64,000 bases of DNA from a virus (IMGVR_UViG_3300045988_156843); one strand, 5' to 3'. Counted from the first letter of the stretch, positions 10,282 to 48,660 are shown. Notes: generated by a model not told the origin, from the sequence alone. Numbers and translations are program-made.

Positions 10282-10304
10282 CACATAATTGACTATCTTT
10301 GCGT

Positions 10305-27523: not shown

Positions 27524-27542
27524 CATGTAAATATTGCACCTC

Positions 27543-29159
27543 ATGTCAGAAAACAGCGAAAATAAACTCAAAATAATACGTCCGCAAAAAGGCTTCCAAG
27601 AAAAATTCGTTCGAAGTAACGTAGATTTTGTTGTAGGTGGAGCCGCTATGGGGGTTGGCAAATCTTTCGCTGCATTACTGATGGCGGCAGAACCTTCTCT
27701 TGACCCTAATTTTCGTATGGTTTTTATTCGTAAGAATATACAAGATACAAAAGTAGGTGGTGGTGGTGTTGATGAGATTGAAAAGATTTATGGAGATGCT
27801 GTAAAGGTCAAACGGTCGGAAAATCCTCGTGCTACATTTAAGAATGGAGCTTTTGTCGATTTTACTCACATGGATAATGAAAATCCCGAAGACGTTCTAG
27901 AACGTGTAAAAGGATGGCAATATGGGGTTATTTATTTTGATGAAGGAACAGGATTTGAATGGAGTACAATTCGATTGGCTTTTTCTCGTAATCGTAGTTC
28001 CGGGAAATGGAATGGCAAGATCAGAATTACCTGTAATCCTAAAAAGAATCATTGGCTTAGAATTTGGCTTGATTGGTATATTGATCCTATAACTGGTTAT
28101 CCAATTCCGGAAAGAGATGGAGTTGTTAGATACTTTTATATTAAAGGAGACAATATAAAAGATGTAGCATTTGGAGATACTCCGGAAGAAGTTTACGAAC
28201 AATGTAAACATCAAATTGATGGGCATCTTAAAAAATTGAATGCTAGAGGAGGAAAGTTTACTTATAAGGATTTCATTAAGACTACTACTTTCTATGGCGG
28301 TTCACTGGATATGAACGAGGAACTGCTTAAGACTAATCCGGGATATGTGGCAAGCGTTGCTGCAATGGGCGAAAAACAAGCATTAGCCAATCTTGCAGGA
28401 AACTGGAATGTAGATATTTTAGATGAATCTGAATCACCTATTCCAAGTTGGGCTGCACGTGAATGCTTAATGGCTGATCCACAAGTGAACGGAAATAAAT
28501 GGATTACGGCAGACTTAGCTGATTATGGAACTGATAATTTTATTGCGTTAGTATGGGATGGATTACACATATATGATATGCTAGTATTAGGAAAGACTAC
28601 TCCTGCCCAAAATGCTAATCAATTGAAATTACTCGCAGCTAAACATGACATACCGGATTCTCATATTGTATTTGACGGTACAAACGGAAGATACATATTA
28701 GATTATATACCCGATGCAATTCCTTTCATCTCATCTTATCCTCCTGTTGGATTATATGCGAGAGCAGCAGCTAATAGAAAGGATGAAGCATATCTCAGAT
28801 TAAAATTTCTTATCACTGAACGAAAAATATCATTTTCTAATGATGTAGCCAATCGTAAATATTATCACGCAAAATTGAAAACGGAAGTCTTAATAGAGAC
28901 TGAATTTATTGAAGAATGTTCCGTTGTTCGTTTTCAAGAACAGCCGGGCGGCAAAAAAAGATTGGCGACTAAAAAAGAAATGAATCAGATGCTTGGTAAA
29001 GGAAGATCAATGGATTTACTTGATGCTATAGCAATGAGAATGTTCCCGTTAGCTGAATATCAATATGGGACAGAACTTGAAAAAACGGCAATAGATCAGC
29101 GAGATGAAATTGAATGTGATTCAAATGAGAGTGTTTATGAAGATTCTTTTTGGGCTTAA
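27543..29159 (+). CDS. terL: terminase large subunit
   Basis: Walker A-like GGAAMGVGKSFAALL, Walker B-like VIYFDEGT, and a C-terminal nuclease-sized domain. The ORF-track start at 27534 is TTG; ATG is at 27543. Confidence 0.8.
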   Translation: MSENSENKLKIIRPQKGFQEKFVRSNVDFVVGGAAMGVGKSFAALLMAAEPSLDPNFRMVFIRKNIQDTKVGGGGVDEIEKIYGDAVKVKRSENPRATFKNGAFVDFTHMDNENPEDVLERVKGWQYGVIYFDEGTGFEWSTIRLAFSRNRSSGKWNGKIRITCNPKKNHWLRIWLDWYIDPITGYPIPERDGVVRYFYIKGDNIKDVAFGDTPEEVYEQCKHQIDGHLKKLNARGGKFTYKDFIKTTTFYGGSLDMNEELLKTNPGYVASVAAMGEKQALANLAGNWNVDILDESESPIPSWAARECLMADPQVNGNKWITADLADYGTDNFIALVWDGLHIYDMLVLGKTTPAQNANQLKLLAAKHDIPDSHIVFDGTNGRYILDYIPDAIPFISSYPPVGLYARAAANRKDEAYLRLKFLITERKISFSNDVANRKYYHAKLKTEVLIETEFIEECSVVRFQEQPGGKKRLATKKEMNQMLGKGRSMDLLDAIAMRMFPLAEYQYGTELEKTAIDQRDEIECDSNESVYEDSFWA

Positions 29160-29169
29160 AATATAAATC

Positions 29170-29736
29170 ATGGAAGCAAAGGATTTAAAAAAAATAATAG
29201 AGGATTGCGCTAAGATGAAGTACGAAATAACTGTTAGAGATATTTCGTATATCGTTTTATTTAATGAATATAACAGTTCTACAATTGCCTATAAATCCAT
29301 TTTTGGGGACGGAGAAGAAGATGTGATTTCAAAATATCATAAGTCAAAAACAATAAAGTTTCTCAAAACATATATTGATGCTAATTTTAAAAATAAGAAG
29401 CAAACCAAAAATGTAGATGAAGAAGACATTCAGGCTGAATATGAAGATATCACATTTGAAGAAAACAAAGAAGCTATGGTACGTCTATTGGCAAAAATAC
29501 CGGAAGCTATCAAAAATGGAATGTCTATAAAAGATGCATTAAAATTAGAAGCGGATGTTCGTACTAGACTTAACGACAAATTCTCTGTTGCTGAAAAAGT
29601 AGAACAGCAATATATAATTGTAGAACAAAAATATAATGATATTTGCCCATATTGTCGGCATGAAATTGCCGTCCCAACTAAAGAGGTTTTAATGCAGAAG
29701 TATAATTTAATTGAAAATCCAAACAAGAATGCCTGA
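29170..29736 (+). CDS. hypothetical protein with C-terminal CxxC
   Basis: 188-aa ORF between terminase and portal, containing CPYCRHE. Function not called. Confidence 0.5.
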   Translation: MEAKDLKKIIEDCAKMKYEITVRDISYIVLFNEYNSSTIAYKSIFGDGEEDVISKYHKSKTIKFLKTYIDANFKNKKQTKNVDEEDIQAEYEDITFEENKEAMVRLLAKIPEAIKNGMSIKDALKLEADVRTRLNDKFSVAEKVEQQYIIVEQKYNDICPYCRHEIAVPTKEVLMQKYNLIENPNKNA

Positions 29737-31252
29737 TTATAAAGAACAAATAAAGCAACTTCTTTCAGAACCGGAAAGATTATTAAGAAAGAAGCCTTTT
29801 TTTAGAGGATATGACATGAATTCATGTGCTCGTTTATATCCAACTAAAGTTGATATAAATGAGACCGTTAAAGTTGAACTTCCGGCTATAAAGAAAAGAG
29901 TGATTCATCAAAGCGAGTTTCTAAAAGAACTAGAGCCACTAAATCACCGTGTTCTATACGATCAAAATGTGCCTTCTATTACTATGAAGCTAGACAAAGA
30001 ACAAGGTGGAGGATTTGTCGAGATCAAATATCAGAAGATGGCTGTCCCATTCCAAAAAAATATAAAAGACAAACAGGTACAGCATCTGTGTGGAAATAAA
30101 ATGGAATTTACAATAGTTGACGAAAACCCGACAGATCAACAACAACAGGATTTTATTACATTTAAACAATATTGGGATCTGAGGAACCAAGATGGAATGA
30201 AAAGAAAGTTAGCAGATGCACAATTATCTGTTGGAGATGCCGGATTGTTATACTACTTTGACCAAGACAAACAAATCAAATCTAGGCTTATATCTTACAT
30301 GGATGGTTTTGTTTTGATTCCACATAATGATGAAAATGGGGATCGCATCATGGAGGCTGTTTATTATCCCAAAGATGATGTTGAGTATATTGATTGTTAT
30401 GATAAAGAAAACTTATATCGTTTTATCCGTGATGATTATGCTGTAGATACTAATAAATATGGATGGAGATTAGTCGAGACTAAATCTCATGGATTCTCTG
30501 AAATTCCTCTTGTAACAAAAAGAGGCGATGTCGCATGGAATGACGGACAAAGCGTTATTGAATCTTACGAAATTTTATATAATATTTTTAATGTTATTCA
30601 AAAAAGACATGGATGGGGGATTCTGTATATTAAAGGTCGCTTTGATGAAACAGGGAAGAAAATTGCCGGATCTGTTATTCTTAATGACAAAACGGCAGGA
30701 ACTGATGCTTCAGGTAATGATGCCAAGTTCTTGACACCTCCTTCTCCGCAGGGAACGATTGACACATTACAGTTAATGGAAGAAACAATACAGAAAGCTA
30801 CAAGTACAACTTTCTTGCTTCCTAAAGATGTTAAAATGACTGGAGATATTTCCGGCATTGCTATTATGCTTACTCAATCAATGGACATTGAAAAGGGGTT
30901 GGAACATGCTGCTGAATATCAGAATGTTGCAGATAAAATGTGCCGTTTGTTTAAAGAGGGATTGGCTAAAGAACTTGTGTATAAAAAGATTCAGCCCACT
31001 GCAATTACTGATTTTGAAAATCTAAAAATTAATGCTAAATTTGTGGTTTGGAGACCTCAGTCTGAAACTGATTTAGTACAGAGATTGGCTACTGGAATTA
31101 GTAATGGTATGATATCTAAGGACACAGCTATAGAAAAGAATCCTGATTCTAAACCGGATGAAAAAGCAAGATTGGAAAAGCAAAAAGAAAAAGAGATTGC
31201 AGATCAAGAACGGCAATTAGAAATAACATCAAAATATAGTAACAAAAAATAA
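29729..31252 (+). CDS. portal protein
   Basis: ~507 aa, adjacent to the terminase, with an acidic/helical C-terminus typical of SPP1-type portals. The ORF-track start at 29711 is TTG; ATG 29729 overlaps the previous stop. Confidence 0.65.
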   Translation: MPDYKEQIKQLLSEPERLLRKKPFFRGYDMNSCARLYPTKVDINETVKVELPAIKKRVIHQSEFLKELEPLNHRVLYDQNVPSITMKLDKEQGGGFVEIKYQKMAVPFQKNIKDKQVQHLCGNKMEFTIVDENPTDQQQQDFITFKQYWDLRNQDGMKRKLADAQLSVGDAGLLYYFDQDKQIKSRLISYMDGFVLIPHNDENGDRIMEAVYYPKDDVEYIDCYDKENLYRFIRDDYAVDTNKYGWRLVETKSHGFSEIPLVTKRGDVAWNDGQSVIESYEILYNIFNVIQKRHGWGILYIKGRFDETGKKIAGSVILNDKTAGTDASGNDAKFLTPPSPQGTIDTLQLMEETIQKATSTTFLLPKDVKMTGDISGIAIMLTQSMDIEKGLEHAAEYQNVADKMCRLFKEGLAKELVYKKIQPTAITDFENLKINAKFVVWRPQSETDLVQRLATGISNGMISKDTAIEKNPDSKPDEKARLEKQKEKEIADQERQLEITSKYSNKK

Positions 31253-31270: not shown

Positions 31271-31531
31271 ATGTATCAGAACATTATAACAAAAGTAACA
31301 GAAATAAAAGAAGCGACTTTAGTAGATGATATTCATCCATTTTACGTATTTTTATTTTCCAAAGAAGGGGAATCTAATACTGCAATTGTAAATGGGTTGC
31401 CTACATATCAGAAAGAAATGACTGATCTTCCACTTACGTCAATGATGTGGAATCCTATCGCTTTAATTAAAATCAATGTAACAAGTGAGCTTCTAACTGA
31501 TTATAGAATCTTTATTGGTTATATCGAATGA
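31271..31531 (+). CDS. hypothetical protein
   Basis: AAGGAGGA lies 6 nt upstream of the ATG; no motif recognised. Confidence 0.5.
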   Translation: MYQNIITKVTEIKEATLVDDIHPFYVFLFSKEGESNTAIVNGLPTYQKEMTDLPLTSMMWNPIALIKINVTSELLTDYRIFIGYIE

Positions 31532-33582
31532 GTGGAGGAGCTAAAGGAATAGGGCTAGGTATTGACTTCGCTATAGGAAATCAATACAAGCGTAAAGGTG
31601 GTAAATCATATATTGATCCGGCTGTCCTATCTAGCGTTGTTTCAGTAATTTCCACCTATGGTAAGACGAATGAAGATGCAGACCGAAGTATTCTAAAAGA
31701 TAAGACCGGGAAAGGTAATGATTTTAAATTGCTGAACTTCGGATTTGCGGGGAATAGTGGGTATGGGCTGTATAGTACTGATTTTACTAAATGGACTAAG
31801 AGACAAATAAATGATTTAGAAGTATCTCCAAATAAAATATCAGTAAGCAATAAAGATAGTGAAACAGCATTAGTAATATGGTTGGATGTAAACAAGAATA
31901 GATATGTGATTCCATCTTATAAAATAAAAGTTAGTAAATTAACAAAAACTATAACTTATTATTACATAGACGAAGCAAATCCAAGTATTAGAAGTACTTT
32001 TTCTATTAATAAAGAAGGAACATACATACTACCTATTTCACGAAACGATTTATATAATGGGGAAGAAAATACTAATATAGGTTTTGGAATATTCCCTCAT
32101 GAATCTTTCACTATCGAGCAACTCCCCGACTTCGAAGGCTGGCTATGTACAGACGGAGTAGACGACATAATCGAGTCCGTCAAGCCCGTCTCTGAGATGT
32201 TGGAGGGTAGCAATGAGATTACGGTGGTGAGTATTATTCATCAGATATCCTTACGTGGCATCTCAGATATTCCATTAACTAATTATATCAGAGAATCTAA
32301 TATTGGATATGTAAGAAATGAGCTTAGAGTTTCTCTTAATAAAACAGGAATATACGGTTATACATGCTTTAATATTCAAAGTCCTATTTCTAGCAATTCC
32401 TCAGTAATAAACAATATATTAGGAGATAAAGAAGATTATAGATTAGGTACGTATGGGAAGATATCAAACGCAAAGCTTAGTGTGCAAGGATTTATAGATA
32501 GTAGTGGTGCAATTATAGATACATCTCAAGTCGCCTACGCAGGTGGCTTTATCGCCAACAAAGTCCTAACCACCGACGAAATTAACCAAATTATCGCCTA
32601 CTTCAACCTTGACCGTCCGGGACAGATCATCAAGCCTCAGTTGTACTGCAACATCAAGAAGCAGGGTATCACTAATGATAATCACGCAGAGTTTAACGAT
32701 CAGTTGATTGACTTTGTAGGAGGTCACAACATTCAGCTAAACAATATCGGTTGGAAAGGAGAAAGTGGAATAATTGATGGTGCGTTATATCTAGACGGTA
32801 TCTCCGACTTCGGCAAGGCTACCGGATTGCCTATTTTGAAGGACTATACGGTAGTGGCGGATAGAAAGATATTGGGGAATAATGAAGGTGGTACTTTGTC
32901 TAAATCTTATTCCGCAGGCAATGGTGCTTTTATATTTGAAACTGGAAGTGTAATCTATTCGTTTGGTACTGGTACAAGTGGAAGCGGAGTTCAAAGTAAG
33001 AGAATGTTATCCTACCTCTCAAAATACATTTATAATGGTAATCCTGTCCAAGCAGGTGCAGGCATTGACAGTGATTCTATGTGGTTAGGAACACTGAGAG
33101 ACAACGATACTAGATTTGCTAAATTAGCATTACGGTCTCTCCTGCTATTCTCATACACCCTTTCTGAGTTCCTCCTTGAACGCCAATTGAAGAAGTACAA
33201 TGCAGGCACTTTGTATCCGGGTATGGTTGAGTTTAGACCGATTGTAAAGAGTAATATTGAATCATATACAATCTCATTTTATTTAATTGATAACCATGGG
33301 AATCAACTATCACTACTAGAGAATGGTAAGTACTACGACTTTAGTGATAAGAATAGATTGAGCTTAGTAAAAGGAGTTATTAAATTAGATAATGAATATA
33401 TAGACAGTATATCAAGTGTTAAGGCAAATGGGATAAAAGTCGATATTAACGATGGTTCTTTTTACTTTCCGGTAACTAAGTCTCCTCAGAAAATAGATAT
33501 TACCATAGATAGAAAAGAAGTGTTAAGCAATATTAAGAATTCAACATGGATTTCAAATGAACAATTAATTAAAAATAAATAA
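31528..33582 (+). CDS. LamG/concanavalin-like lectin-fold structural protein
   Basis: Two LamG-like signatures (GWLCTDGVDDIIE and GALYLDGISDFGKATG). The gene shows alternating G+C-rich and A+T-rich patches. Confidence 0.45.
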   Translation: MSGGAKGIGLGIDFAIGNQYKRKGGKSYIDPAVLSSVVSVISTYGKTNEDADRSILKDKTGKGNDFKLLNFGFAGNSGYGLYSTDFTKWTKRQINDLEVSPNKISVSNKDSETALVIWLDVNKNRYVIPSYKIKVSKLTKTITYYYIDEANPSIRSTFSINKEGTYILPISRNDLYNGEENTNIGFGIFPHESFTIEQLPDFEGWLCTDGVDDIIESVKPVSEMLEGSNEITVVSIIHQISLRGISDIPLTNYIRESNIGYVRNELRVSLNKTGIYGYTCFNIQSPISSNSSVINNILGDKEDYRLGTYGKISNAKLSVQGFIDSSGAIIDTSQVAYAGGFIANKVLTTDEINQIIAYFNLDRPGQIIKPQLYCNIKKQGITNDNHAEFNDQLIDFVGGHNIQLNNIGWKGESGIIDGALYLDGISDFGKATGLPILKDYTVVADRKILGNNEGGTLSKSYSAGNGAFIFETGSVIYSFGTGTSGSGVQSKRMLSYLSKYIYNGNPVQAGAGIDSDSMWLGTLRDNDTRFAKLALRSLLLFSYTLSEFLLERQLKKYNAGTLYPGMVEFRPIVKSNIESYTISFYLIDNHGNQLSLLENGKYYDFSDKNRLSLVKGVIKLDNEYIDSISSVKANGIKVDINDGSFYFPVTKSPQKIDITIDRKEVLSNIKNSTWISNEQLIKNK

Positions 33583-33588
33583 ATAATT

Positions 33589-35535
33589 ATGGAAATAATC
33601 AAAGACATAGCAGCTACGCAAGAAGTTGAATGGGGCACTCTAGCAGATGCAATTGATAGGAATTTCAATGAAGCATCTACAGGAATTCAAACAGTTGCTC
33701 AGAAGGTGGATCTTCTTGACATGGCTTCTCCAAACTATTGTGTGGGAGAATGGCAAAATGGAGAATTAAGTCCTACATCAGTTAATACGATTGGTGATAC
33801 AAGTATACTTGACAAATGGGATTTCTATCTAATAGATACTACAGACAATACAGGTGAGACTAATCATCCTGTAGGAAAATTGAAAAGAAACAATCTTCTT
33901 CGATTTGTAGACGGTAGTTTTGCTCCTGTTATTGGAATCACAGAAGCTATGAGAGCCGAATGTGATGTTGAACTGTATTTAGATAATACCCAAACAAATA
34001 AATACTGTGATGCAGGGGCATTTGATGCAGAAGCATTCTATAATCAATATGGGATGACGCAGAAACTCTACAATGCGACAGGTGAAGAAGTTCGTATTTT
34101 ACGACCTTATGAGACCACTGAAACTAAATATACAATAGGTTTAGGAAGAGCAGATAAGATTTATCTATTAGATAACGTTGTCGGAAAAAGTGGGAAAAGA
34201 TGGAAAGGGATATTTGCAAGTCCGACAACATGGGATGGAATAGATACAACTCTTTGGGGGCTTGATCCGACTGCCATATCTCCTTGTCCTGTATGCACTA
34301 TTGGCAATAAGACACGTTCTTTCTTTTATGTATATGAAGGTGAATCTAATTGTAAATCTTCAAATGGTATAAATAATCGTTGTACGATGTTTAGTAACGG
34401 AAGAACATATCCAAGAGTTAATGATATGAATCAAGTCAACGACATGACGTGGAGTCGTGCAAATAATGCAGATCCCGATGCACCTTATCCTTTTGCAGAA
34501 GGAGGATATCATGCGTTGAATACTTTCATCAATTGTTTGGAAATTCGTTATGGAACTAAATATCTACACAAGGAATCATTATTTTCCGGTGGTATTTGTT
34601 CTAATGATTCTGTAAGCGAAGCAGGATGGACAAAGACGGGAGGCATTCGTTACAAAAAGACGGCAGATAGCACATGGAAATACGCTAATTGGAATACGAC
34701 TCCATCGGATATGTTCTATAATGCTAGTGGGGGTAAGACTAATATGAATGAATTCCTAAGTAATTATTGTCCTAAAGAACAATGTATGGAGAGTCAAATG
34801 GCAGCATCGTTTGCCGTTGAGACTGGAGTGCAGGAAGGTGAAGAATTTGAATTCTATGGAGCTACCTATTATTACCGCAATATAGTGGATACAAAAGGAT
34901 TAGCTGATGGAGAAATGAATGTAAAGGTATATAAGAAGATGTCTCAAACATTTAATGCATATGACGAGTTGGGTGCAGAAACATCTTTTGATGTAGAAGT
35001 AATCTTGCGTATGGCTTTATATGCAGGTGCTAATTTATCCGGTGATGTATTTGCTTACTGCGGAGGAGGATATGAACAGGTTGGAACATGTGTGAATGCT
35101 GCTTCAGCATCTGTTAACAATCCAGTTGATATTTATTTGGAACCGGATCAAAAAAAATGGTTGAAAGAAACAAGTGTAACTAAAACCAATCTTGGTACTT
35201 TTGATTTTGAAAAATCCTATATGAAATTAGGCAGTAGTACAAACTTGGGAGATAGTTACGCAAAAGAGCGAGAAAATTATGCTGCATGGAAGACTGCAAA
35301 AGGCGGTAGTCTGTCAACTGGAGAATGTTATTATGCTTGGGATAACAATTATTGGAGTAGTACAGCTATGCAGCGTGTTAGAATTGCGGCTCGGTTTCGT
35401 GGTCATGCTTATTCTGCTGTTTGCTCGCCTCGTAATTTGTATGCGCATTACGCTGCTTCTAATGCGACTCGTAACATTGCCGGGTTTGCCCAAGTTAGGA
35501 TATCAGTAAACGCAGTTCCGATGCAATCGGAATAA
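33589..35535 (+). CDS. DGR target protein (variable C-terminal C-type-lectin-like domain; probable receptor-binding protein)
   Basis: The last ~50 codons contain the VR, which matches the downstream TR except at TR adenines. The C-terminal placement of VR is typical of Mtd-like targets. Confidence 0.85.
   Translation: MEIIKDIAATQEVEWGTLADAIDRNFNEASTGIQTVAQKVDLLDMASPNYCVGEWQNGELSPTSVNTIGDTSILDKWDFYLIDTTDNTGETNHPVGKLKRNNLLRFVDGSFAPVIGITEAMRAECDVELYLDNTQTNKYCDAGAFDAEAFYNQYGMTQKLYNATGEEVRILRPYETTETKYTIGLGRADKIYLLDNVVGKSGKRWKGIFASPTTWDGIDTTLWGLDPTAISPCPVCTIGNKTRSFFYVYEGESNCKSSNGINNRCTMFSNGRTYPRVNDMNQVNDMTWSRANNADPDAPYPFAEGGYHALNTFINCLEIRYGTKYLHKESLFSGGICSNDSVSEAGWTKTGGIRYKKTADSTWKYANWNTTPSDMFYNASGGKTNMNEFLSNYCPKEQCMESQMAASFAVETGVQEGEEFEFYGATYYYRNIVDTKGLADGEMNVKVYKKMSQTFNAYDELGAETSFDVEVILRMALYAGANLSGDVFAYCGGGYEQVGTCVNAASASVNNPVDIYLEPDQKKWLKETSVTKTNLGTFDFEKSYMKLGSSTNLGDSYAKERENYAAWKTAKGGSLSTGECYYAWDNNYWSSTAMQRVRIAARFRGHAYSAVCSPRNLYAHYAASNATRNIAGFAQVRISVNAVPMQSE
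35386..35494 (+). repeat. DGR variable repeat (VR)
   Basis: Hand alignment to 35641-35749 gives 97/109 identical. All 12 mismatches lie opposite TR adenines. Confidence 0.9.
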
Positions 35536-35550
35536 AGGGGATGCAATCCC
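35516..35550 (+). promoter_or_regulatory. twin GCA-loop hairpins downstream of VR (candidate DGR target-recognition element)
   Basis: ttccgat-GCA-atcggaa (35516-35532, spanning the stop codon) and gggat-GCA-atccc (35538-35550). They start 22 nt after the VR end. Confidence 0.4.
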
Positions 35551-35640
35551 TGCAAATCCTATAGACATCTGATAAGTTATGCAATGGGACATAACCTCTA
35601 AAACAGATTGGATAGGTTGAAATAATGGATAAAGAGTTTT

Positions 35641-35749
35641 GCGGCTCGGTTTCGTGGTAATGCTAATAATGCTAATTGCTCGCCTCGTAATTTGAATGCG
35701 AATAACGCTGCTTCTAATACGAATCGTAACAATGCCGGGTTTGCCCAAG
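35641..35749 (+). repeat. DGR template repeat (TR)
   Basis: Non-coding copy of VR with 27 adenines. In the VR frame it reads as 12 AAY codons plus one ACG. Confidence 0.9.
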
Positions 35750-35895
35750 AAGGTTCTTTTATTATCGTCAAACTCTTTATTCGTGTCTTGGAACGACAAA
35801 TTATTATAAGACAATGTACTTGTGGATACATTTTGTATTTGAGAAGTACGGTAGTGGAAATAAACATTACCTTTTATGCCCAACTTGCTATAAAA

Positions 35896-37269
35896 ATGAA
35901 AAATAGAATAGTTGACATATTTGATAATATTACAGAAAAGGATGTAAATCTTGCGATTGATCGTGCTATTCATAAACATATGAATAAAAGAGAAGTCATA
36001 TCCTTTTTAGACAACAGACCGTCTAATTGCAAACAATTATATTCCGCATTAAAAGATGGATCATACATTAATATATTATCATATAAATATTTAGAAAAGA
36101 CAAATAAAAATGGTAAAGACAGGGACATCAGTAGTCCAACATTAGAAACTAGGATATACCAACATTTACTATTAAATTTGTTAGAACCTACATATTATCA
36201 GAAAGACAATAATTATGGTTTAAATTGCAAAAAGAAATCCGGTATAACTGCAACTGATAAAAAAAGATCTGTTGTACATAAGATGAAAAATATCTTTTAT
36301 GATCGATTGGATTTAAGTTATTGTTTAGTGATAGATCAAAGGAAGTGCTACGAACATATTAAGGAGAAATATTTCAGGAAAGCTATAAAGAAAATAGTTG
36401 CTGATAAAAAACTGATAGATTTTGCCGTAAATATATGTTTTGTAAATAATAAACTTCCGATTGGAACGCCAACTTCACCATTTGCTCATCATATCTTGAT
36501 GTTATCTTTTGATTATTTTGCAAAGAGTTTAACAAAAGAATGTGTAAGATACGCTGATGATAACTTTTTAGCTTTTCATACTAAAGAGGAAGCTCAACAG
36601 GCTAAATGGAGAATCAAGAACTTTTGGTGGTATGAATTAGGGATGCGTGCTAAAAGACATACAGTTAAAATACAGCCATTATCTATTCCTTTAGATTTTT
36701 GTGGCTATAAGTATTATAGAAATAACAATTCAAAAACTTCTCATAATAAAGGATATACAAAAATTAGAAAAAGAGTAGCTGACGATGCCAAACGCTGCAA
36801 TAATGATAGAAGTTGGGGATCTTACTTCGGATTATTAAAACATGCAGACACATGGTCATTAATGCGCAAAATAGAAAATAAAATGAGACTTACGGAACTT
36901 ACTAACAAGATCAAGATTGATCGCAAAATGGATGCTAAGAATATCCTTCCTAAAGAATTACTAGGCGAGGTTATATCCATTTATGAATATGAGATTAGAT
37001 ATGATTCTAAAGGCAATGCCAATTGGATTAAATGTTTAATTGGTATGGATGAAAAGGATGAAGATGGAGAATCTACTGGGAGAACAATCGCAAGAGAATT
37101 TCATGGAAACTTTCAAGGGATCATACAATATATTATCTTGTGCGAAAAGGCTTTTGGAAAGAAACAATTATTACCTTTGGAAGATGTTGAGATTGAGAAT
37201 CAATGTGGATACATATTCAAAGGAAGTACTAATCAATTAGAATATATAAGTAAAGATGAGAACAATTAA
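35896..37269 (+). CDS. DGR reverse transcriptase
   Basis: RT motifs VIDQRKCYEHI, LPIGTPTSPFAHHIL, VRYADDNFLAF (YxDD) and FCGYKY. The first ATG after the TR is at 35896; the longer track ORF from 35692 is just the TR read in frame. Confidence 0.85.
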   Translation: MKNRIVDIFDNITEKDVNLAIDRAIHKHMNKREVISFLDNRPSNCKQLYSALKDGSYINILSYKYLEKTNKNGKDRDISSPTLETRIYQHLLLNLLEPTYYQKDNNYGLNCKKKSGITATDKKRSVVHKMKNIFYDRLDLSYCLVIDQRKCYEHIKEKYFRKAIKKIVADKKLIDFAVNICFVNNKLPIGTPTSPFAHHILMLSFDYFAKSLTKECVRYADDNFLAFHTKEEAQQAKWRIKNFWWYELGMRAKRHTVKIQPLSIPLDFCGYKYYRNNNSKTSHNKGYTKIRKRVADDAKRCNNDRSWGSYFGLLKHADTWSLMRKIENKMRLTELTNKIKIDRKMDAKNILPKELLGEVISIYEYEIRYDSKGNANWIKCLIGMDEKDEDGESTGRTIAREFHGNFQGIIQYIILCEKAFGKKQLLPLEDVEIENQCGYIFKGSTNQLEYISKDENN

Positions 37270-38541: not shown

Positions 38542-41500
38542 ATGGTCGAAAAACTCTCAATATTTTCATTGGGACAGGACGGTAGCAAAACTCCTTTCCC
38601 TAACAATGGAGCACAAGCTGTAATAGCTGACTACCAATTTGTATCCGGGAGAATGGGTTCAATTAGCCTTTCGGCTACTTTAATGTATCCTCGTTGTCTT
38701 GATAATGAATGGGATGAGACACAGTTTGTTGAATTTAGGGGAGAAAAATATTATATCTTCACCACTCCTTCTTCTTCCAAATCCAATACCGATTTAAGAT
38801 GGAAGCATGACCTTGTATTTACTTCAGAAAGAATTCAGCTTGACAATACATATTTTTATGATGCGGTATCATCTGATGCTGCCAATATAGATCAATACGT
38901 TAGTAATAGCACTAAGTTCACATTTTATGGTGATATAAATGAGTTTGCTAAACGTATGAACTATTCTTTAAAATATTCAGGTCTAAAATATTCCATTGTT
39001 GTAGATGAAGGAATTAGCTCAGAAGGTAAACTGATGACTTTTGAAGATAAGTTTTTCAGTGAAGTCTTACAGCTAGTTTTTGAAACATATGAATTACCAT
39101 ATTATTTTGCAGGCAGAGTAATACATATTGGATTTTCCAGTAATGCGATAACTCAGACATTTAAATATGGGCATGACAACCAACTCCTTTCAATCACTAA
39201 GACAAACGCTAATTATCGTATAATTAATAGATGTACGGGTGTTGGTAGTGATGAGAATATTCCATATTACTATCCGAATGATAATCCAAAAGGAGATATA
39301 GGCGTACAAGCTGATGCAAATAATACTGCAATTAAACAAGCGGACATTCGGATTTCTGACAAAGATTTGTTTGCAGAGAAGGTAAATATAAACGAGACTA
39401 TAGAATATCGTGAAGGTGAAGCCGCAAATGCATATAGCTATAATTTGTGGTCTGACACTGGAATGCAGTATCAATATACTCTTAAGAATCAAGTAGAAAT
39501 CCCACGTGTTGAAGTAATAAATACTGTTCCAAAAACAGGAGTATGGAAGGGGACTATCCGGATGCGATTAAAAATGTATCGTGAAGGAAAGATGAGAGTG
39601 GGAATTCAGCCATTAATGAGACGGGTTTGGAAGAATGCAAATCCCCCTACCAAAGATTGGCAACCCGAAGGTCTTGAAATGAAATTTTCAGATGCGGAAA
39701 ACAACAACCTGACTTATACAAAGTTAAATACATGGGATTATAGTTTAGGTGATCTTGCAATAGGAGAATATAATTTAGATTTTATATTTCCATTCCAAAC
39801 CAATGAGTTTATAGACTATTATAAAGTCTATGCTGTCATTAAAGCAATCAGCATTGGATATGATGGCAAATATTGGTTTTTAAATAATGCGGTAGTATCT
39901 CTTCCTGCTATTGGTATTAGTATTACTAAAACTCCTGCTGTGGGAGATAAGTTTAAGCAAATTGAATTAAAGACAGATTATATTCCATATGCTCAGAATC
40001 TGATGCCTCCTATCTATAGAGAGAGCAAGGGATTGCAGCACTTTTACAATGCTAAGAATAATACATATAAGATTCCCGGTACAAATGAATATTATACGTT
40101 TGAAAACGAATATACTGAAGGGAATCCTAAAGAAATAATTGTAAAATTTGAAAATATTAAACCTTCAATTAAGGGAGTTAGGAATGCTGCCGGACAATTG
40201 ATTGGAGAGATTGCGGCTATTGCATTTGACGATGAGGATAATGACGAATTAGATAAAAAAACAAATGCATATCTACATCCATATTTCTATGTAAAATTAA
40301 GGAAGACAGATGGTACATATGGATTCAATCTATTCGAGCAAGGTATTTCAAGCGGTGAGATGACTCTTTCCATGACAAGTGGTAAATGTGCTGCTTGTAA
40401 TTTCATAGTAGAAGTAAAAGAGGAAGGTGAAGGTGAAAAAGCAATATTTCAGAATCCAGTACAAGTTGATAGCAATGGAAATATTGTTCCCGGTAACGCT
40501 GCAGAGAAAATTAACAAAAAAAATATTCAGGAAAGACAGCAGAATACTAGGACAAATGAAGTTTGGTTAGCTTTAAAAAAAGATGATTCGACTTTCAATA
40601 TAGTTATGCCTAATGAAACGAATAACTATAAGCCGGAAGCCGGAGACTCTTTTGTTATTCTAAATATTAAGCTACCACAAGCATATATATTAAGCGCAGA
40701 GAACGATCTGAAAGAAGAGATCATTCGATATATGGCTCAGAACAATAGCGAAAAATTTAATTTCTCAATAACATTTAGCCGTATATATTTAGAAAATCAT
40801 CCGGATATTCTTGCTCAATTAAATGAGAATGCTCGTTTGCAAATTGAATATAATTCTCAAAAGTATGAATTATATGTATCTAATTATACATACAAAGTTT
40901 CCAATAATGAGATATTGCCGGAAATTACTGTTGAGCTTTCAGATACGATTACAATACGAAAGGGAACATTACAAAAATCTATTTCCGCAGTCCAACAAAG
41001 TCTATTAAGCACTATCGGTTCTATTGACTTTCTGAAAATGGGATTAAAATACTTTCTTCGTAAAGATGTGCCTGATACTGCATTAGAACATATTACATTT
41101 AATGATGGCATTCTTGTAAGAGGTAAAAATGCCATTATTGAAGAATCAGCCAATGTTATATATGAGGAAGACGGTAATGCTATCTATGAGGAATATTCAG
41201 AACCTATAATGCCTATAGCTGAGGCTAATACATTAGGATCTCTTGATAATGTAGATGCTATTGTTGATGGGACTGTAAACGATAAAGTTCTTCTTGTTAA
41301 GAATCCCGGAAGTACGCAGTGGACTCAGGAAAAAATGTCCATCAATGTGGATAGTATTATCTATATATCTACACAGACATTATTGGATAGTACTAGAACG
41401 ACAGATTTAACTTTGAGCGCAGAAGATCATCAGGCAATTATCAAACTCTATGGAGATAAAAATGTATCCAAAAATACAGTTGTTTATAGAGGGAAAGAGA

Positions 41501-42363
41501 AACTAGGAAATCAGTATTTGGTAGCTCTTTCAATGTATGCCAATTTTTCTATCATTCCTGCATCTGAAGAAGGTGTCATGGATGTAGCTTATGTAAATCC
41601 GTCAGACGGTTTTCTTTATGCATTTAAAATTAAAACAAATGAAAATCGCAGTATTGCTACCGTTCCGGAAAAGAAATCAAGTGGAGGAGAAATTATCATT
41701 GATAGTGCTCTTTCTACAGAATCAGAAAATCCGGTAATGAATAAGATCATAACTCAATATATTAATGAGCTTATGGATGCTGTATTCCAAATAAGTATGA
41801 CTTCTTTTAGTGGAGGAGGCACTTATGAAATCGGAAGCAGTACAAAACCTGTATTGAGTTGGGTTATTAAAAGAAAAGGAGAAGAGGTTAATCCTACCAA
41901 TGCAACTGTGAACGGTAACAAGGAAGGTGTAGCGGCTAATTTTAAGTCTTATACATCTCCGGTTGAAATTACATCTAATAAATCATATACTGTAATAGCA
42001 TATTATAATTCTCAATCAGTGACTAGATCGGCATCATATTCATTTCTCAGTAAAAAGTATTTTGGAGTTTCTCCAAATACGACTTTGACAAATGATGAAA
42101 TATTAGCATTAAGCGGATGGGCATGGGCTAATAGTAGAACTATGAGCGAGTCCCTATTTGATTGCACAGGGGGTCGTTATCCATATTATGTAATTCCTGC
42201 AAGCATTTATTCAGGACTTGAAGTATGGGTAGGTCAGTTTAGAAATACAGACATAGTTGTTACTGATCAAAATGTAGTCAATGCACAAGGTTATACGGTA
42301 GCTTACAAAGTTGTGAGATTAAATACTATACAGTACGGTAAATTATACATATCATTCAAATAA
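38542..42363 (+). CDS. large tail/baseplate-fibre protein
   Basis: 1273 aa. It shares two modules with the next fibre gene: the FLRKDxxD...ITFNxGI..G region (from 41053) and IDSALSTESENPVMNKIIT (41698-41754). Confidence 0.55.
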   Translation: MVEKLSIFSLGQDGSKTPFPNNGAQAVIADYQFVSGRMGSISLSATLMYPRCLDNEWDETQFVEFRGEKYYIFTTPSSSKSNTDLRWKHDLVFTSERIQLDNTYFYDAVSSDAANIDQYVSNSTKFTFYGDINEFAKRMNYSLKYSGLKYSIVVDEGISSEGKLMTFEDKFFSEVLQLVFETYELPYYFAGRVIHIGFSSNAITQTFKYGHDNQLLSITKTNANYRIINRCTGVGSDENIPYYYPNDNPKGDIGVQADANNTAIKQADIRISDKDLFAEKVNINETIEYREGEAANAYSYNLWSDTGMQYQYTLKNQVEIPRVEVINTVPKTGVWKGTIRMRLKMYREGKMRVGIQPLMRRVWKNANPPTKDWQPEGLEMKFSDAENNNLTYTKLNTWDYSLGDLAIGEYNLDFIFPFQTNEFIDYYKVYAVIKAISIGYDGKYWFLNNAVVSLPAIGISITKTPAVGDKFKQIELKTDYIPYAQNLMPPIYRESKGLQHFYNAKNNTYKIPGTNEYYTFENEYTEGNPKEIIVKFENIKPSIKGVRNAAGQLIGEIAAIAFDDEDNDELDKKTNAYLHPYFYVKLRKTDGTYGFNLFEQGISSGEMTLSMTSGKCAACNFIVEVKEEGEGEKAIFQNPVQVDSNGNIVPGNAAEKINKKNIQERQQNTRTNEVWLALKKDDSTFNIVMPNETNNYKPEAGDSFVILNIKLPQAYILSAENDLKEEIIRYMAQNNSEKFNFSITFSRIYLENHPDILAQLNENARLQIEYNSQKYELYVSNYTYKVSNNEILPEITVELSDTITIRKGTLQKSISAVQQSLLSTIGSIDFLKMGLKYFLRKDVPDTALEHITFNDGILVRGKNAIIEESANVIYEEDGNAIYEEYSEPIMPIAEANTLGSLDNVDAIVDGTVNDKVLLVKNPGSTQWTQEKMSINVDSIIYISTQTLLDSTRTTDLTLSAEDHQAIIKLYGDKNVSKNTVVYRGKEKLGNQYLVALSMYANFSIIPASEEGVMDVAYVNPSDGFLYAFKIKTNENRSIATVPEKKSSGGEIIIDSALSTESENPVMNKIITQYINELMDAVFQISMTSFSGGGTYEIGSSTKPVLSWVIKRKGEEVNPTNATVNGNKEGVAANFKSYTSPVEITSNKSYTVIAYYNSQSVTRSASYSFLSKKYFGVSPNTTLTNDEILALSGWAWANSRTMSESLFDCTGGRYPYYVIPASIYSGLEVWVGQFRNTDIVVTDQNVVNAQGYTVAYKVVRLNTIQYGKLYISFK

Positions 42364-42369
42364 ACAGTC

Positions 42370-45300
42370 ATGGCAGATATACCCGGAACCAATGTCGCCT
42401 CCATGATAACTCCGTTTACAACGCAGGATATCATCGCTACACATAGTGAAACATATGGACAAGGAGGCTATAGAAGTGAGAAAACAGTTGCAGATATGAA
42501 CGCAATTATTGCGTCCCGTAGAAAAGAAGGTATGATTGTTCATGTCTTAGATGAAGACAAGGATTATATCTTAAAGGACGGTAAATTTGTTGTGAAGACA
42601 AGTGAGGTCATTGTCGATTCAGCATTGAGCACTACTTCTCTTAATCCCGTTCAAAATAAAGTAATTACCAATGCTTTAGATTCCAAACAAAACTCTTTGG
42701 TTAGCGGAACTAGCATAAAGACCATTAATAGTGTATCTTTGTTAGGTTCCGGCAATATAAATATACCTGTTATAACAGTAGATAGTGCAACAAGTTCTAC
42801 ATCTACAAATCCTCTACAAAATAGGGTTATAACAGCTTCCATTACTGATATAAATACTAAATTAACGCCAATATCTACAGCATGGAACAAGAAAAATACA
42901 GCTAATGGTTTTCTTGTATTGGATACAGCAGGATTAGTTCCTAGCAGTAATCTTCCTTCCTATGTCGATGATGTATTGGATGTGTATGCTACATATGATC
43001 AATCAGCAACTGGAACTATATCAAATGTTAAATTATATACAGATTCATCTAAAACGATTGCAGTAGTTCCGGAAACAGGAAAGATATACATTGATGTTTC
43101 ATCCGGCAAACCTCCATATCAATTCAGATGGTCAGGTACAGCATATGTTACATTGAATACCGGAGGACTTATTATTGGTACTATATCCGGTACAGCATTT
43201 GATGGTGGAAAAGGACAAGAATTATATTCTGAATATGCAGGAAGCCGAAAAACTATTTATCAAAGAGCATATTCCTTCTTCAATGCCATTACTCCTGCTT
43301 CAGATAAATTCATGCAAAATATATCAGCATCTTATACTGCCACTGCCATATCACTGACTAAAGCATATAAGAACTTTGCAGGGACATCATCATCAGAATC
43401 ATTAACTATAAATGCTGCTACTACAAGTAATGCAGGAGTAATGTCTGCAGCAGATAAAACTAAGTTAGATTCATATCAAGCCTCAACAGGAGCTACTCCG
43501 AATTCAATTGCCAAGAGAGATGAGAATGGAGACCTTACAATGCGGTATCCAATTACTAATGCCGGAGTAGATAATAGCTCATCTATTGATTATGTCGTAT
43601 ATATAAGCAATTCTGCTACAAAGTTTATGAGACATTGTTCATTGTCTCATTTTACCGATGTAATGCGATTGGTTACAACAACAAGTAGAGGATTAATGTC
43701 TCCGGCTGACAAAAAGAAACTGGAAGATATTGATACAGAGAAATTCCTTCGAAAAGATATTGATGATATAGCAAATGGAAATATTACTTTCAATAATGGT
43801 ATTTATGTGAAAGGTTCATATGCTAACCTTCAATCAATTTTTGAACAAGGAGGAAATTCTATCCTTGAACAAGGAGAAAACGGGATTATAGAAACAGCAG
43901 AGACACAAGCAGCACCAACTGATATTACATTAGCTGATTTAGCTAATGTTGATGGCACAGTTAACGAACCTGCATACAAGAGGATGATTTTAACTAAACT
44001 TGCCGGAGCTACGACATGGACACAAGAATACATTGATCCTCTTATTGAAATTACAGAAGCTCCTAGCAATAATTTATATTATGCTAGAAGAAATAAAGCA
44101 TGGGTTAATTTTACTCCTTTTTCCGGTAATTATTCAGATTTATCGGGAAAACCGACTATTCCTACTAAATTAGCAAATCCATATGCATTAACCTTTTCCG
44201 GAGCAGTAACTGCAACATATGACGGATCAGGCGCAGTCAATGTAAATATACCTGTCGGTGGAGGAGGTGGTGGCGGAAGCGTTATCGTAGATAGCTCTCT
44301 TAGTACAACTTCGGTAAATCCTGTACAGAATAGGGTTATAACAAATGCTATTAATAATGCCAATAGTAGCATACAAACCAATGCTGATAATATTGAAGCG
44401 ATAATGGCTATTATCGCCAATATACCATCTATAAGTATAGATACTGCATTGAGCACAACAAGTACCAATGCTGTTCAGAATAAGGTGATAACTGCCGCCT
44501 TAAATTCCAAACAGAATACACTTGTGTCAGGTACTAATATTAAAACGATTAACAGTCAAAGTATTGTAGGATCAGGAAATGTCAATCTCACTTATTCTTT
44601 TTCTCAGATAACTTCTAAACCAACTACCTTATCGGGATATGGAATTTCGGATGCATATACAATGACGCAAGTAAACAATGCCTTTGTATCTTTAAGCGGA
44701 AATGTAATTAGAACATCAGGGAAGCTATCAATGGCAGCAGACGTATTTGCAGATGATGGCTCCACAGGTGGTCTTGATATGAGAAATTCGAATATTGTAG
44801 GTGTAAATGGTATATATTTTAAAGATGCATCAGATAGTGACGGTGAATATATCAATTTTTACAGAGATTCTACTCATGTTGATTCTTTATATGCATTAAA
44901 TGGAGAATTACGATTTAAACCTAATAGAGTATTAGGTGCTATAACGACTGCATCAAATATAATTCTTCATACGGGGAATTATACATCATATGTACCTACA
45001 AAAACAGGGACGGGAGCAACAGGGACTTGGGCAATAAGCATTACAGGAACAGCCGAGTTATCTAAAGCTACAAATTTAATCAATGGATCATATACAGGAA
45101 GTGGAGGAAAACAACCGCCATCTTATATACCATCAGGGAAGATTAGATTTAACATGATGAATACTGTTGTTGGTACTGACTCTAACTATAAGGATTTCAT
45201 ATTAATGGACAGTTATACTGGTAATGATGTTCCTTATGTTACTGCAATTGGAGTAAGAAAAACTTCAACTCCTGAAGCATATATAATGTCAGGTGCAAAA

Positions 45301-47337: not shown

Positions 47338-47580
47338 TTATTTCCAATTACCTATAGCTAACCATGTGAAATTCCATGCTGTTTCATTAACATTGCCGCC
47401 TTGTGCTATATATCTAGTTAAAACAGAAAACGAAGAACCTGATCTAGAGTAAAACATAGGAGAATATACGATTTTTTCCGTTTGATTAACAGCTTCTCCC
47501 GTGAATTGTATAGTATAATATGCAGTTTTAAAAGTAGTAGGCATATATATAGTTTTAATACCTGCTCCACCTGCAATTGT
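47098..47580. mobile_element. invertible segment carrying two tail-to-tail fibre-tip cassettes
   Basis: 483 bp between perfect inverted repeats. It holds the expressed tip (47098-47337) and a silent antiparallel tip (47580-47338) with zero spacer. Confidence 0.7.
47338..47580 (-). other. silent alternative fibre C-terminal cassette (80 aa)
   Basis: In frame with the right inverted repeat and has no ATG (the track start is a TTG inside the repeat). A TAA lies two codons upstream of the repeat. Homologous to the active tip (TIYMPTTF.. vs VIYYPISF.., FTWLAIGNWK vs FYWFAIGRWK). Confidence 0.75.
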
Positions 47581-47652
47581 CCCCCACTGAATCAGCAACC
47601 CATCCGGAAGCTTGTAGTAACTTGATGAGGAGCCGAAGGATTTGGAAGTTAT
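47581..47652. repeat. right 72-bp inverted repeat
   Basis: Reverse complement of 47026-47097, 72/72. Confidence 0.95.
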
Positions 47653-47687
47653 GAATTAAAATAGTATTTTTACAAAAAATATGAGAA

Positions 47688-48242
47688 ATGATGTATTGGA
47701 AACAAGGCTTTTACGATGAACCTGTAGAGGGAAGCCTAGAAATAACAGATGAATACTGGCGAGAGCTTTTGACTGGGCAGGAGAATGGTTTGGAAATCCA
47801 TGAAGATTCTAATGGGTATCCAATGCTGAGACAACATGTATATACTTTAGAAGAAGCAGTACAAATGAAGGAAATAGAAATTAATGCTTATGACTCTTCT
47901 GACAAGGTAAACTGTTTTATACTTGATGGGGAATCCGGATGGCTTAATAAAGCAGATCGAGCAGGATTAATCAACTCTATTAACATAGAAAAAGATGCAG
48001 GAAGAACCGAAACAAAAATTTGGTTTAACAATAAAAAACATCCTCTTCCAGTAGATTTTGCTTTAGATATGATTAAAAAAATAGAATTATACGCTATTGA
48101 CTGCAATGATACGACTGAAGAGCATTTGGCTATTATAAAAGAATTTGCTACTGTTCAACAAGTACAGACATTTGATGTTACTAAAGATTATCCTGAAATA
48201 TTAACGTTTAAAAGTAAAAAAGATGAAGAAAGTATTTTATAA
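47688..48242 (+). CDS. tail fibre assembly protein-like (DUF4376-like)
   Basis: 184 aa directly after the fibre. The central/C-terminal region resembles DUF4376 of fibre assembly proteins as I recall it; unverified. Confidence 0.4.
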   Translation: MMYWKQGFYDEPVEGSLEITDEYWRELLTGQENGLEIHEDSNGYPMLRQHVYTLEEAVQMKEIEINAYDSSDKVNCFILDGESGWLNKADRAGLINSINIEKDAGRTETKIWFNNKKHPLPVDFALDMIKKIELYAIDCNDTTEEHLAIIKEFATVQQVQTFDVTKDYPEILTFKSKKDEESIL

Positions 48243-48654
48243 CTCATGGTTAGCTAAGGCTATCTTATTTCCACAGTTTTCTACAATTACTATTATGGCT
48301 TGGGTATTTACTAAATATCGTTCCCTTAAACAAGCCGTTATTAATCATGAATGCACACATGCTCGTCAATGGACTGAATTAGCTATTGCTTCAGGAATAC
48401 TGATTTGGCTTGGAATATTGATCTTTGGTTATTCGGCATGGTATTTATTATTTGCGGCAGTAGTCTTTTATATTTGGTATGGCTTAGAATATGGGATTCG
48501 TTTTTTGATTTCTACTATTTTAGATGATGGGTGTACGGCACATGATATATATAAAAGCGTTTCTTTTGAACAAGAAGCCCGTTTTTCTGAGGAAGATAAT
48601 AATTATCTAGAAAATAGCAATTATTTCGCATGGACTAAATTTTTATTTAAATAA
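48223..48654 (+). CDS. membrane protein with HExxH..Q motif
   Basis: INHECTHARQW is followed by two TM helices (LAIASGILIWLGILIFGY and LLFAAVVFYIWYGL). Zincin-like, reminiscent of DUF4157. Confidence 0.4.
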   Translation: MKKVFYNSWLAKAILFPQFSTITIMAWVFTKYRSLKQAVINHECTHARQWTELAIASGILIWLGILIFGYSAWYLLFAAVVFYIWYGLEYGIRFLISTILDDGCTAHDIYKSVSFEQEARFSEEDNNYLENSNYFAWTKFLFK

Positions 48655-48660
48655 TACATA

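Follow-up and report, generated by a model that had tools for sequence, protein, structure and literature searches.

A diversity-generating retroelement of the Avd-less, GxxxSP reverse transcriptase subtype, probably working, in the structural module of an uncultured tailed phage

Diversity-generating retroelements (DGRs), in which a reverse transcriptase (RT) serves the transfer of a template repeat (TR) into a variable repeat (VR) within a target gene, are understood in outline and are known to abound in the phages of gut Bacteroidales; the finding of a DGR is therefore in itself unsurprising. The RTs of DGRs share the signature motif [I/V/L]GxxxSQ, where group II intron and retroviral RTs have QGxxxSP (PMC7826257). 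For the DGR of phage crAssE-Sib, the motif GxxxSP has been reported together with a VR situated in a cavity, and it is owing to GxxxSP that the finder myDGR misses this cassette (PMC11054128). Wu et al. (2018) found 29% of DGRs to be without an accessory gene and ~20% of DGR RTs to carry a C-terminal extension of up to ~150 amino acids (aa), and described an avd-less lineage (Lineage 3) restricted to Bacteroides and relatives (PMC5758913). Here, we describe a cassette of the viral contig IMGVR_UViG_3300045988_156843, of which a stretch of 64,000 nucleotides (nt), hereafter the window, was analysed. With a probability of roughly 0.88, we read this cassette as a working DGR of the Avd-less, GxxxSP-RT subtype first described in crAssE-Sib, located within the structural module of another tailed phage, which is uncultured and measures ~83 kb. 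The core of the cassette, in which each gene corresponds to an open reading frame (ORF), is as follows.

33589..35535, + strand: the target, an ORF of 648 aa, DGR variable protein and putative receptor-binding tail protein
35384..35494, + strand: the VR, inside the ORF 33589-35535 (residues ~599-635), with 12/12 of its differences from the TR at A
35639..35749, + strand: the TR, with 27 A that form twelve AAY codons, one ACG and one CAA in the VR frame
35896..37269, + strand: the RT, 457 aa, with YADD at residues 219-222 and LPIGTPTSP at 187-195; Pfam RVT_1

The VR/TR pair is the only long direct repeat that a repeat finder detected in the region (VR 35384-35494 versus TR 35639-35749; 111 nt, 89% identity). 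An earlier note, made from the sequence alone, had described the same repeat with a length of 109 nt, to which the repeat finder adds two matching bases at the 5′ end. In a base-by-base comparison, which reproduced the differences given in that note exactly, the two copies mismatch at 12 positions (35404, 35410, 35413, 35414, 35419, 35420, 35440, 35446, 35449, 35464, 35468 and 35477 in the VR); the TR base is A in all 12, and the VR bases opposite are C, T, T, C, G, T, T, C, T, G, C and T, respectively. As 27 of the 111 TR nucleotides are A, all 12 mismatches would fall on A by chance with a hypergeometric probability of 4.4e-9. A BLAST search with the TR against the whole window returned the VR as sole partner (E 2.7e-38), and therefore the element has one target within the window.

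In the VR frame, 24 of the TR adenines occupy the first and second positions of the twelve AAY codons and one the first position of ACG; the other two are the second and third letters of a terminal CAA (Gln), which belongs to the GC-rich 3′ end, and these two are invariant in all relatives. The earlier note had the 27 adenines and the translations of TR and VR right but overlooked the CAA when it divided the adenines into 12 AAY codons plus one ACG. The theoretical repertoire that it derived, 15^12 x 4 = ~5e14, is arithmetically correct.

Public contigs were queried with the repeat in which each template adenine had been replaced by N. In each same-lineage contig thus recovered, the repeat is present twice, once as a TR that hardly varies and once as a variable VR. 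The population analysis concerns IMG/VR contigs, mostly from dataset 3300045988, these assembled contigs being a proxy for reads; a scan for the VR pattern yielded only 4 loci in metagenomes and, among genome contigs, one short contig of a metagenome-assembled genome (MAG) from a bin named Odoribacter. When seven distinct VRs were each compared with their own TR, 73 of the 78 differences were found at a TR adenine (A>T 34, A>C 29, A>G 10), and the flanks were identical. Amongst 12 near-identical genomes, with RT proteins that are 99-100% identical and a DNA divergence of 0-1.1%, the VR occurs as 11 haplotypes and is polymorphic at 24 of the 27 TR-adenine positions. Pairwise nucleotide diversity in these 12 genomes, a measure we preferred to the number of polymorphic sites, which is too high owing to mosaic flanks and to two or three genomes that diverge further, amounts to 0.151 in the VR as compared to 0.027 in the target gene outside the VR, 0.023 in the TR, ~0.01 in the spacers and 0.006 in the RT. 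The earlier note had proposed to map reads in order to see whether variation is confined to the template adenines; on contigs as a proxy for such mapping, it is indeed concentrated in the VR and mostly at TR-adenine positions. This ongoing diversification supports the activity of the element in the lineage.

The TR is polymorphic at 35659, 35671, 35674, 35700, 35730 and 35732 in sister contigs (L015, L020, L022, L023 and others), and several of these sites are adenines, e.g., AAT to TAT at 35674 and AAT to ATT at 35732. Some contigs have a TR allele with TAT for one AAT, and their VRs carry T at the same site. That the T of the TAT allele is kept in the matching VRs is what copying from TR to VR predicts; the transfer runs in that direction.

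The cassette is one of a large family. We found 465 RT homologues of ~450 aa, and at least 211 IMG/VR contigs encode one. The 77 related cassettes for which enough upstream sequence is available all share one order, that is, a target with a C-terminal VR, 144-366 nt, the TR, ~90-230 nt and the RT. Across these 77, VR and TR mismatch at 49% of the TR sites with A, against 1.1% of those with C, 1.1% with G and 3.0% with T, and the mutation spectrum of the family comprises 418 A>T, 376 A>C and 118 A>G changes. The RT of Bordetella phage BPP-1 (Brt or bRT) shows ~52% misincorporation at A in vitro, with dATP most frequent (PMC7826257); both the 49% of mismatched adenines and the A>T-led spectrum of the family resemble these figures.

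The ORF of the RT is intact and starts with the ATG at 35896, 146 nt 3′ of the TR, where the earlier note had placed an RT with a YADD box; the assignment is borne out by a match to Pfam RVT_1 (E 1.6e-11). Amongst PDB sequences, it matches Bordetella bRT best (8ub7_A; E 1.7e-6, residues 26-328). The structural model (predicted local distance difference test, pLDDT, 84) finds the same entry on top in Foldseek (E 1.6e-14; template modelling (TM) score 0.80 on the matched structure), followed by group II intron RTs, and the profile of the RT family aligns with Brt over the whole length by hhalign with a probability of 97.6%, so that kinship with bRT is evident at the level of both sequence and fold. 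R76 and I189 are the equivalents of R74 and I181 in bRT, two residues that promote adenine mutagenesis (PMC7826257). S194 and P195, at the end of LPIGTPTSP, are invariant in 73 members of the RT family. The RT is devoid of a maturase/En region, and beyond its thumb it extends into an additional domain.

36907..37266, + strand: C-terminal domain of the RT, residues 338-457, ~120 aa after the thumb, conserved family-wide and absent from bRT

This domain is acidic (isoelectric point, pI, of 5.0 versus 9.7 for the RT core), and the model gives it a mixed beta/alpha secondary structure. Searches of Pfam, PHROGs and PDB sequences returned nothing for it, nor does it resemble Avd (hhalign probability against Avd, 1.3%). 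The avd gene for which we looked would encode a basic protein of ~128 aa, forming a four-helix-bundle pentamer, within the cassette. There is no ORF between VR and TR. Three small ORFs follow the RT (133, 114 and 122 aa, two of which are acidic), none of them with a credible match in Pfam, PHROGs or NCBIfam, where the best E values, from 3.3e-4 to 0.04, are far below the cut-offs or concern families of unknown function, and the 133-aa ORF is not conserved in crAssE-Sib. The DGR called complete in the earlier note thus has its VR, TR and RT, but neither Avd nor another known accessory gene was found in a search that covered the 64-kb window, ~19 kb of the genome lying beyond it.

DNA triloops of the GNA type closed by a C-G pair form unusually stable mini-hairpins. 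At and behind the 3′ end of the VR, we identified three elements that resemble homing signals, including a sequence like the initiation of mutagenic homing (IMH) element.

35479..35494, + strand: IMH-like GC-rich 3′ end of the VR, GCCGGGTTTGCCCAAG, right after which the VR-TR homology stops; invariant in all relatives
35516..35532, + strand: hairpin 1, ttccgat-GCA-atcggaa, overlapping the last codons of the target gene (stop codon TAA at 35533-35535)
35538..35550, + strand: hairpin 2, gggat-GCA-atccc; window-type cassettes have two hairpins in total

The 16 nt homologous to GCCGGGTTTGCCCAAG are annotated as IMH and IMH* in the crAssE-Sib record. The hairpins begin 22 and 44 nt past the VR and span 22-56 nt. 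All relatives examined keep the GCA loop, with stems that covary, and crAssE-type cassettes have a variable number, 3-6, of tandem GCA-triloop hairpins. A hairpin past the VR is needed for homing, with a consensus of one GC-rich stem of 7-10 base pairs (bp) and a 4-nt GRNA loop, 4-34 bp from the VR (PMC3240598). We regard the hairpins in the window as a variant of this published homing signal that differs from the consensus in form. In the arrays of crAssE-type cassettes, the number of hairpins varies from 2 to 6 between otherwise near-identical contigs (L001, 8405-8490; VR-TR spacers of L045, L074, L082 and L087).

Around the TR, folding pairs the sequence just 5′ of the repeat with a sequence ~20 nt 3′ of it, and the same TR-flanking stem, made of other sequences, occurs in at least nine variant cassettes. 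The predicted scaffold of a DGR RNA consists of the following parts, in which conserved segments were defined with a MAFFT alignment of 14 diverse relatives.

35558..35638, + strand: 5′ scaffold, with helices 35558-63/35611-16 and 35567-71/35604-08 and a hairpin 35576-81/35590-95
35615-22, + strand: conserved GGTTGAAA of the 5′ scaffold, from the 14-relative alignment
35625-35636 / 35773-35784, + strand: helix P1, 12 bp, which encloses the TR
35750..35895, + strand: spacer between TR and RT, forming the 3′ scaffold, with the 3′ strand of P1, helices P1b, P2 and P3, and conserved motifs
35785-87/35795-97, + strand: helix P1b, 3 bp, directly after P1
35805-14, + strand: conserved TATAAGACAA of the 3′ scaffold
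35816-21/35844-49, + strand: helix P2
35850-56/35865-71, + strand: helix P3, followed by a T run
35876-88, + strand: conserved ATGCCCAACTTGC of the 3′ scaffold

P1 is 98% paired over the alignment with compensatory changes in 9 of its 12 pairs; none of 500 shuffles reached the observed covariation, and the score dropped far lower when the 3′ partners were slid by 1-3 columns. P3 is 80% paired, and for the upstream helices RNAalifold gives compensatory changes in 12 of 15 predicted pairs. P2, with 42% paired, lies partly out of register in the MAFFT alignment; its stems covary by eye, and we do not count it with the covarying helices. The conserved unpaired motifs are GGTTGAAA, GTGTCyNGGAryGAC, TAWAAGACAA and ATGCCCRRCTTGC. 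P3 together with its T run (TTTTAT), at 35850-35878, was flagged as terminator-like, 18 nt 5′ of the RT start, and the same hairpin with a T run is present in most relatives. With such a terminator, the TR might be transcribed as part of a separate non-coding RNA, and the RT expressed by read-through only. In the TR region, Rfam yields no family at gathering score. A weak match to group II intron domain 5 (35928-35976, - strand; E 0.026, 21.7 bits versus a gathering score of 61) lies on the strand opposite to the RT ORF and is almost certainly due to chance. A scan for sigma-70 promoters is uninformative for a Bacteroidales phage.

The underlying mechanism could proceed as follows. A non-coding RNA of ~340 nt (roughly 35558-35895) would be transcribed, the flanks of which pair (12 bp in P1 and the further helices), such that the TR is presented as a loop on a scaffold. 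The RT would bind this scaffold and, presumably by cis-priming, copy the TR into cDNA from the GC-rich 3′ end, with misincorporation opposite adenines. The cDNA would then replace the VR (35384-35494), homing being directed by the shared GC-rich 3′ end and the two GCA-triloop hairpins. Each round may re-randomise up to 12 AAY codons and the one ACG codon, i.e., choose amongst ~5e14 proteins. The variable residues would lie in the C-terminal, C-type-lectin-like, ligand-binding part of the target, by which the phage could track changes of the host surface.

A further step, which we put forward tentatively and hold to be rather less probable than its negation, is that the acidic C-terminal domain of the RT and the RNA scaffold replace the Avd pentamer. 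The enzyme would then be a single-protein, self-sufficient mutagenic RT whose IGxxxSP motif misreads adenine, and the tandem GCA-triloop hairpins a distinct homing signal that is read by the additional domain. The clade would constitute a mechanistically separate branch of DGRs, widespread in phages and prophages of Bacteroidales and missed by motif-based finders.

The target itself has no match in Pfam (FGE-sulfatase and DUF1566 included), PHROGs or NCBIfam, none amongst PDB sequences, either as a single sequence or as a profile, and none with the Bordetella phage tail protein Mtd by hhalign. Its 1248 homologues share a conserved module of ~600 aa (residues ~30-640) behind varied N-terminal extensions, and representatives at 50% identity reach up to 2385 aa, with the module at the C-terminus. 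This arrangement fits a distal binding module mounted on fibres of different sizes. The AlphaFold model (pLDDT 94; predicted TM score, pTM, 0.89) has one credible match in the PDB, the Foldseek top hit TaqVP (5vf4; E 1.8e-3, probability 0.93). Searched against BFVD, it resembles a “Receptor binding complex” model at E 2e-32 as well as numerous “tail collar fibre” models; further hits are proteins of the crAss-like phages cr6_1 and cr55_1, each of which has an RT gene too. From the gene surroundings and these fold matches, we infer a receptor-binding role, as had been suggested in the earlier note; it is well motivated.

The 90%-identity cluster of the target counts 651 members, and the full-length ones that were read vary mainly at the positions templated by Asn codons. 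This cluster also includes RT sequences, and the clusters of P0001, P0005 and P0076 are affected. Protein P0131 (1141 aa, locus L012) begins with the N-terminus of the target, continues with the TR-encoded peptide and ends with the RT. Such target-RT fusion ORFs occur in some assemblies because the VR has collapsed onto the TR. For this group of phages, VR/TR repeats yield chimeric assemblies and inflated protein clusters.

The cassette is surrounded by structural genes, of which the following were identified.

16108-21831: tape-measure protein, 1907 aa
24841-26013: major head protein
27534-29159: terminase
29711-31252: SPP1-type portal
31528-33582, + strand: 684-aa protein just upstream of the target, with no match in Pfam or PHROGs
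38542-50610: fibre-like proteins

Two of the last, of 1273 and 1655 aa (38542-47337, + strand), match PHROG families of unknown function only, and the 1273-aa protein has a sub-threshold match to a ricin-type lectin. The replication module is on the opposite strand. Near-identical IMG/VR contigs measure 82-84 kb, which gives ~83 kb for the phage. The large terminase subunit (TerL) and the major capsid protein (MCP) are ~29% identical to those of Bacteroides phage C3_41T2LP, and TerL is also ~29% identical to that of LoVEphage; a megablast of the cassette against GenBank phages gave no DNA-level match. With ~83 kb, a 1907-aa tape-measure protein and TerL and MCP at only 29% identity, the phage is therefore not a crAss-like podovirus. 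Homologues of target or RT occur in the assemblies of Bacteroides sp. ET336, Candidatus Phocaeicola faecipullorum and a Bacteroidales bacterium. The 5.9-kb contig CAMDJC010000090.1 (L013), which encodes a 100% identical RT, belongs to the bin “uncultured Odoribacter sp.”, which is either a hint to the host or a binning artefact. Judging from these relatives, the phage probably infects a member of the Bacteroidales.

Elsewhere in the window, a 394-aa ORF (10299-11483, + strand) belongs to the phage transposase family phrog_506 (E 7e-51) and is located at a switch in gene orientation; it may be an insertion sequence within the phage genome. In a batch scan, one small ORF matched the HAD domain of “Swiss Army Knife” RNA-repair proteins (E 1.8e-25), and others matched MazG, Peptidase_M15_3, DUF4494 and DUF7841.

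A number of observations weigh against a working DGR with a receptor-binding target. Domain 4 of the RT, L-P-I-G-T-P-T-S-P (IGxxxSP), is without the SQ of the DGR signature [I/V/L]GxxxSQ, and when the profile is searched against PDB sequences, the group II intron RT 7uim scores 44.5 bits and bRT 42.2 bits. Neither the ORFs beside the cassette nor, in a batch Pfam scan, 50 small ORFs from the window yielded an Avd or HRDC family, and bRT without Avd is inactive (bioRxiv 10.1101/2023.10.23.563531). Activity is read from differences between contigs, that is, from assembled sequence, and differences in the VR at non-A sites exist (5/78 in the seven VRs; 9/33 polymorphic VR sites in the 12 genomes). 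The TR polymorphism at A sites may stem from a mixing of VR and TR reads during assembly; the variants could also be real TR alleles, as the VRs of the contigs with the TAT allele keep the T. The match of the target to TaqVP is weak at the level of the whole protein (TM 0.25-0.40, at most 0.43; root-mean-square deviation 15 Å), and no sequence-level link connects the target to Mtd or to any PDB entry. As regards the motif, the RT is placed outside the canonical class though it works as the RT of a DGR, the motif being a detection heuristic; a run of myDGR on the window cassette would probably fail, the RT being IGxxxSP. The earlier note had held that an RT outside the DGR clade, along with a monomorphic VR, would speak against a DGR; the clade of the RT is not a valid test here, since bRT and group II RTs score about equally in the profile search and yet adenine mutagenesis is plain.

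That tie, the group II type of GxxxSP and the best, sub-threshold matches in NCBIfam, which are group II intron and retron models, would fit an ordinary duplication beside an unrelated group II intron or retron RT, the A-only pattern being coincidental. Such a coincidence has, however, to contend with the probability of 4.4e-9, with the same bias in 77 independent cassettes, with an Rfam search in which no family reaches its gathering score and the domain-5 match is weak and on the opposite strand, and with an RT that lacks a maturase/En region and whose thumb aligns along full bRT. Mismatches at A in 12 out of 12 cases, in 73 out of 78 in the sister VRs, and the bias of the 77 cassettes effectively refute it, and we accord it practically no probability. 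Neither do we expect the cassette to be a relic in this genome, with a VR that records past homing and has no present turnover, for instance because a required partner is missing, although this is not as remote as coincidence. No Avd-type accessory gene was found amongst the neighbours of the cassette and the 50 small ORFs, epsilon crAss-like phages hold many related cassettes with fragmented or deleted RTs (PMC11054128), and one assembled genome cannot show turnover. However, the RT ORF is unbroken and retains every catalytic motif, its protein is 99-100% identical in 11 sister contigs that present 10 further VR haplotypes, the TR keeps its 27 adenines in the AAY register, and the helices of the scaffold and the hairpins are intact, which makes a relic quite improbable. 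A stronger case, which we still consider unlikely, can be made that the target is not the primary host-receptor-binding protein but an auxiliary adhesin of the tail, binding for example capsule, mucin or another glycan, or that it is even absent from the virion: its role in adsorption is itself putative, two much larger fibre-like proteins are encoded just downstream (38542-42363 and 42370-47337), the VR of the crAssE-Sib homologue is said to occupy a cavity and not a flat face (PMC11054128), and Quimbyviridae have DGR targets outside structural modules (PMC8008677). Against this stand the location of the target in the structural block, after the portal gene and the 684-aa protein and before the fibre-like genes, its best BFVD matches, namely the “Receptor binding complex” model and crAss-like tail fibres, and the position of the module in relatives, at the C-terminus of extended fibre-like proteins.

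We thus return to a working element. As far as sequence data can test it, the cassette is a DGR by every functional criterion, of the GxxxSP, Avd-less subtype and not of the canonical motif class. The DGR call made in the earlier note is carried by the population variation of the VR, the inheritance of the TAT allele, the 77 cassettes and bRT as the best match of the RT. Within the literature searched, the occurrence outside crAss-like phages, the activity in the population, the RNA scaffold, the hairpin array and the acidic RT domain appear to be additions to the description of crAssE-Sib. The GxxxSP, Avd-less DGR is not confined to epsilon crAss-like phages, as the same cassette is present in an unrelated tailed phage. 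Since it is found in unrelated phages, with relatives of the RT on at least 211 IMG/VR contigs and homologues of target or RT in assemblies of Bacteroides, Phocaeicola and Bacteroidales, the cassette moves between phage lineages, and since myDGR is reported to miss the clade, virome surveys may under-count it. The mechanistic question raised is how reverse transcription proceeds without Avd, to which the extra RT domain is a possible answer. The clade offers handles on Avd-independent mutagenic reverse transcription in this domain, the covarying scaffold and the hairpin signal, and these are of interest to DGR-based directed-evolution tools.

Amongst described systems, DGRs of architecture A1 (TR-RT) and of the avd-less Lineage 3 are accessory-less like the window cassette. 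In Lineage 3a, a separate gene, CH1, encodes an acidic protein of 160-169 aa, whereas the acidic module in the window is fused to the RT. The variable proteins TaqVP (Thermus aquaticus) and TvpA (Treponema), which have a C-type lectin fold, superpose poorly on the window target globally, which exceeds them by far in size and has an N-terminal helix as well as numerous insertions.

With the DGR of BPP-1 (Mtd, Avd, TR and Brt), the window cassette shares the adenine-specific transfer from TR to VR and a VR at the C-terminus of a tail protein. The spacer between TR and RT is ~140 nt long in BPP-1 as compared to 146 nt here, and the GC-rich IMH, the hairpin past the VR, the RT fold and R74/I181 all have equivalents in the window. 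In the BPP-1 ribonucleoprotein, the RT is enveloped by the spacer, which forms a duplex with the avd 3′ end located ahead of the TR, an arrangement that P1 parallels (bioRxiv 10.1101/2023.10.23.563531). The two systems differ in that no Avd was found in the window, where the motif of the RT ends in SP rather than SQ and the enzyme carries the additional acidic domain (120 aa), and in that BPP-1 has one 8-bp stem with a GAAA loop in place of two stems of 5-7 bp with a 3-nt GCA loop. The 648-aa target has no sequence similarity to Mtd and resembles TaqVP more.

The nearest annotated relative is the cassette of crAssE-Sib (OR575929; Babkin et al., Viruses 2024, PMC11054128), a system shared by other Epsilonunovirus (epsilon crAss-like) phages. 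It differs from the one in the window by a VR-TR spacer of ~353 nt with 3-6 hairpins, versus 144 nt with 2 hairpins, and by an IMH/IMH* mismatch inside the repeat that the window lacks; the ORFs after the RT are unrelated, and the window cassette resides in an unrelated, non-crAss phage backbone. Yet the order of target, VR, TR and RT without avd is the same (the record marks VR, IMH, TR, IMH* and RT), and so are the equal size of the TR, the GC-rich IMH, the GCA-triloop hairpins and the TR-flanking stem. The RTs are 57% identical over 96% of the RT, including GxxxSP and the C-terminal domain, and the targets are 55% identical over 593 aa and display the same VR scaffold, xARFxGxAxxxxCSPRxLxAxxAxSNxxRxxxGxAQ.

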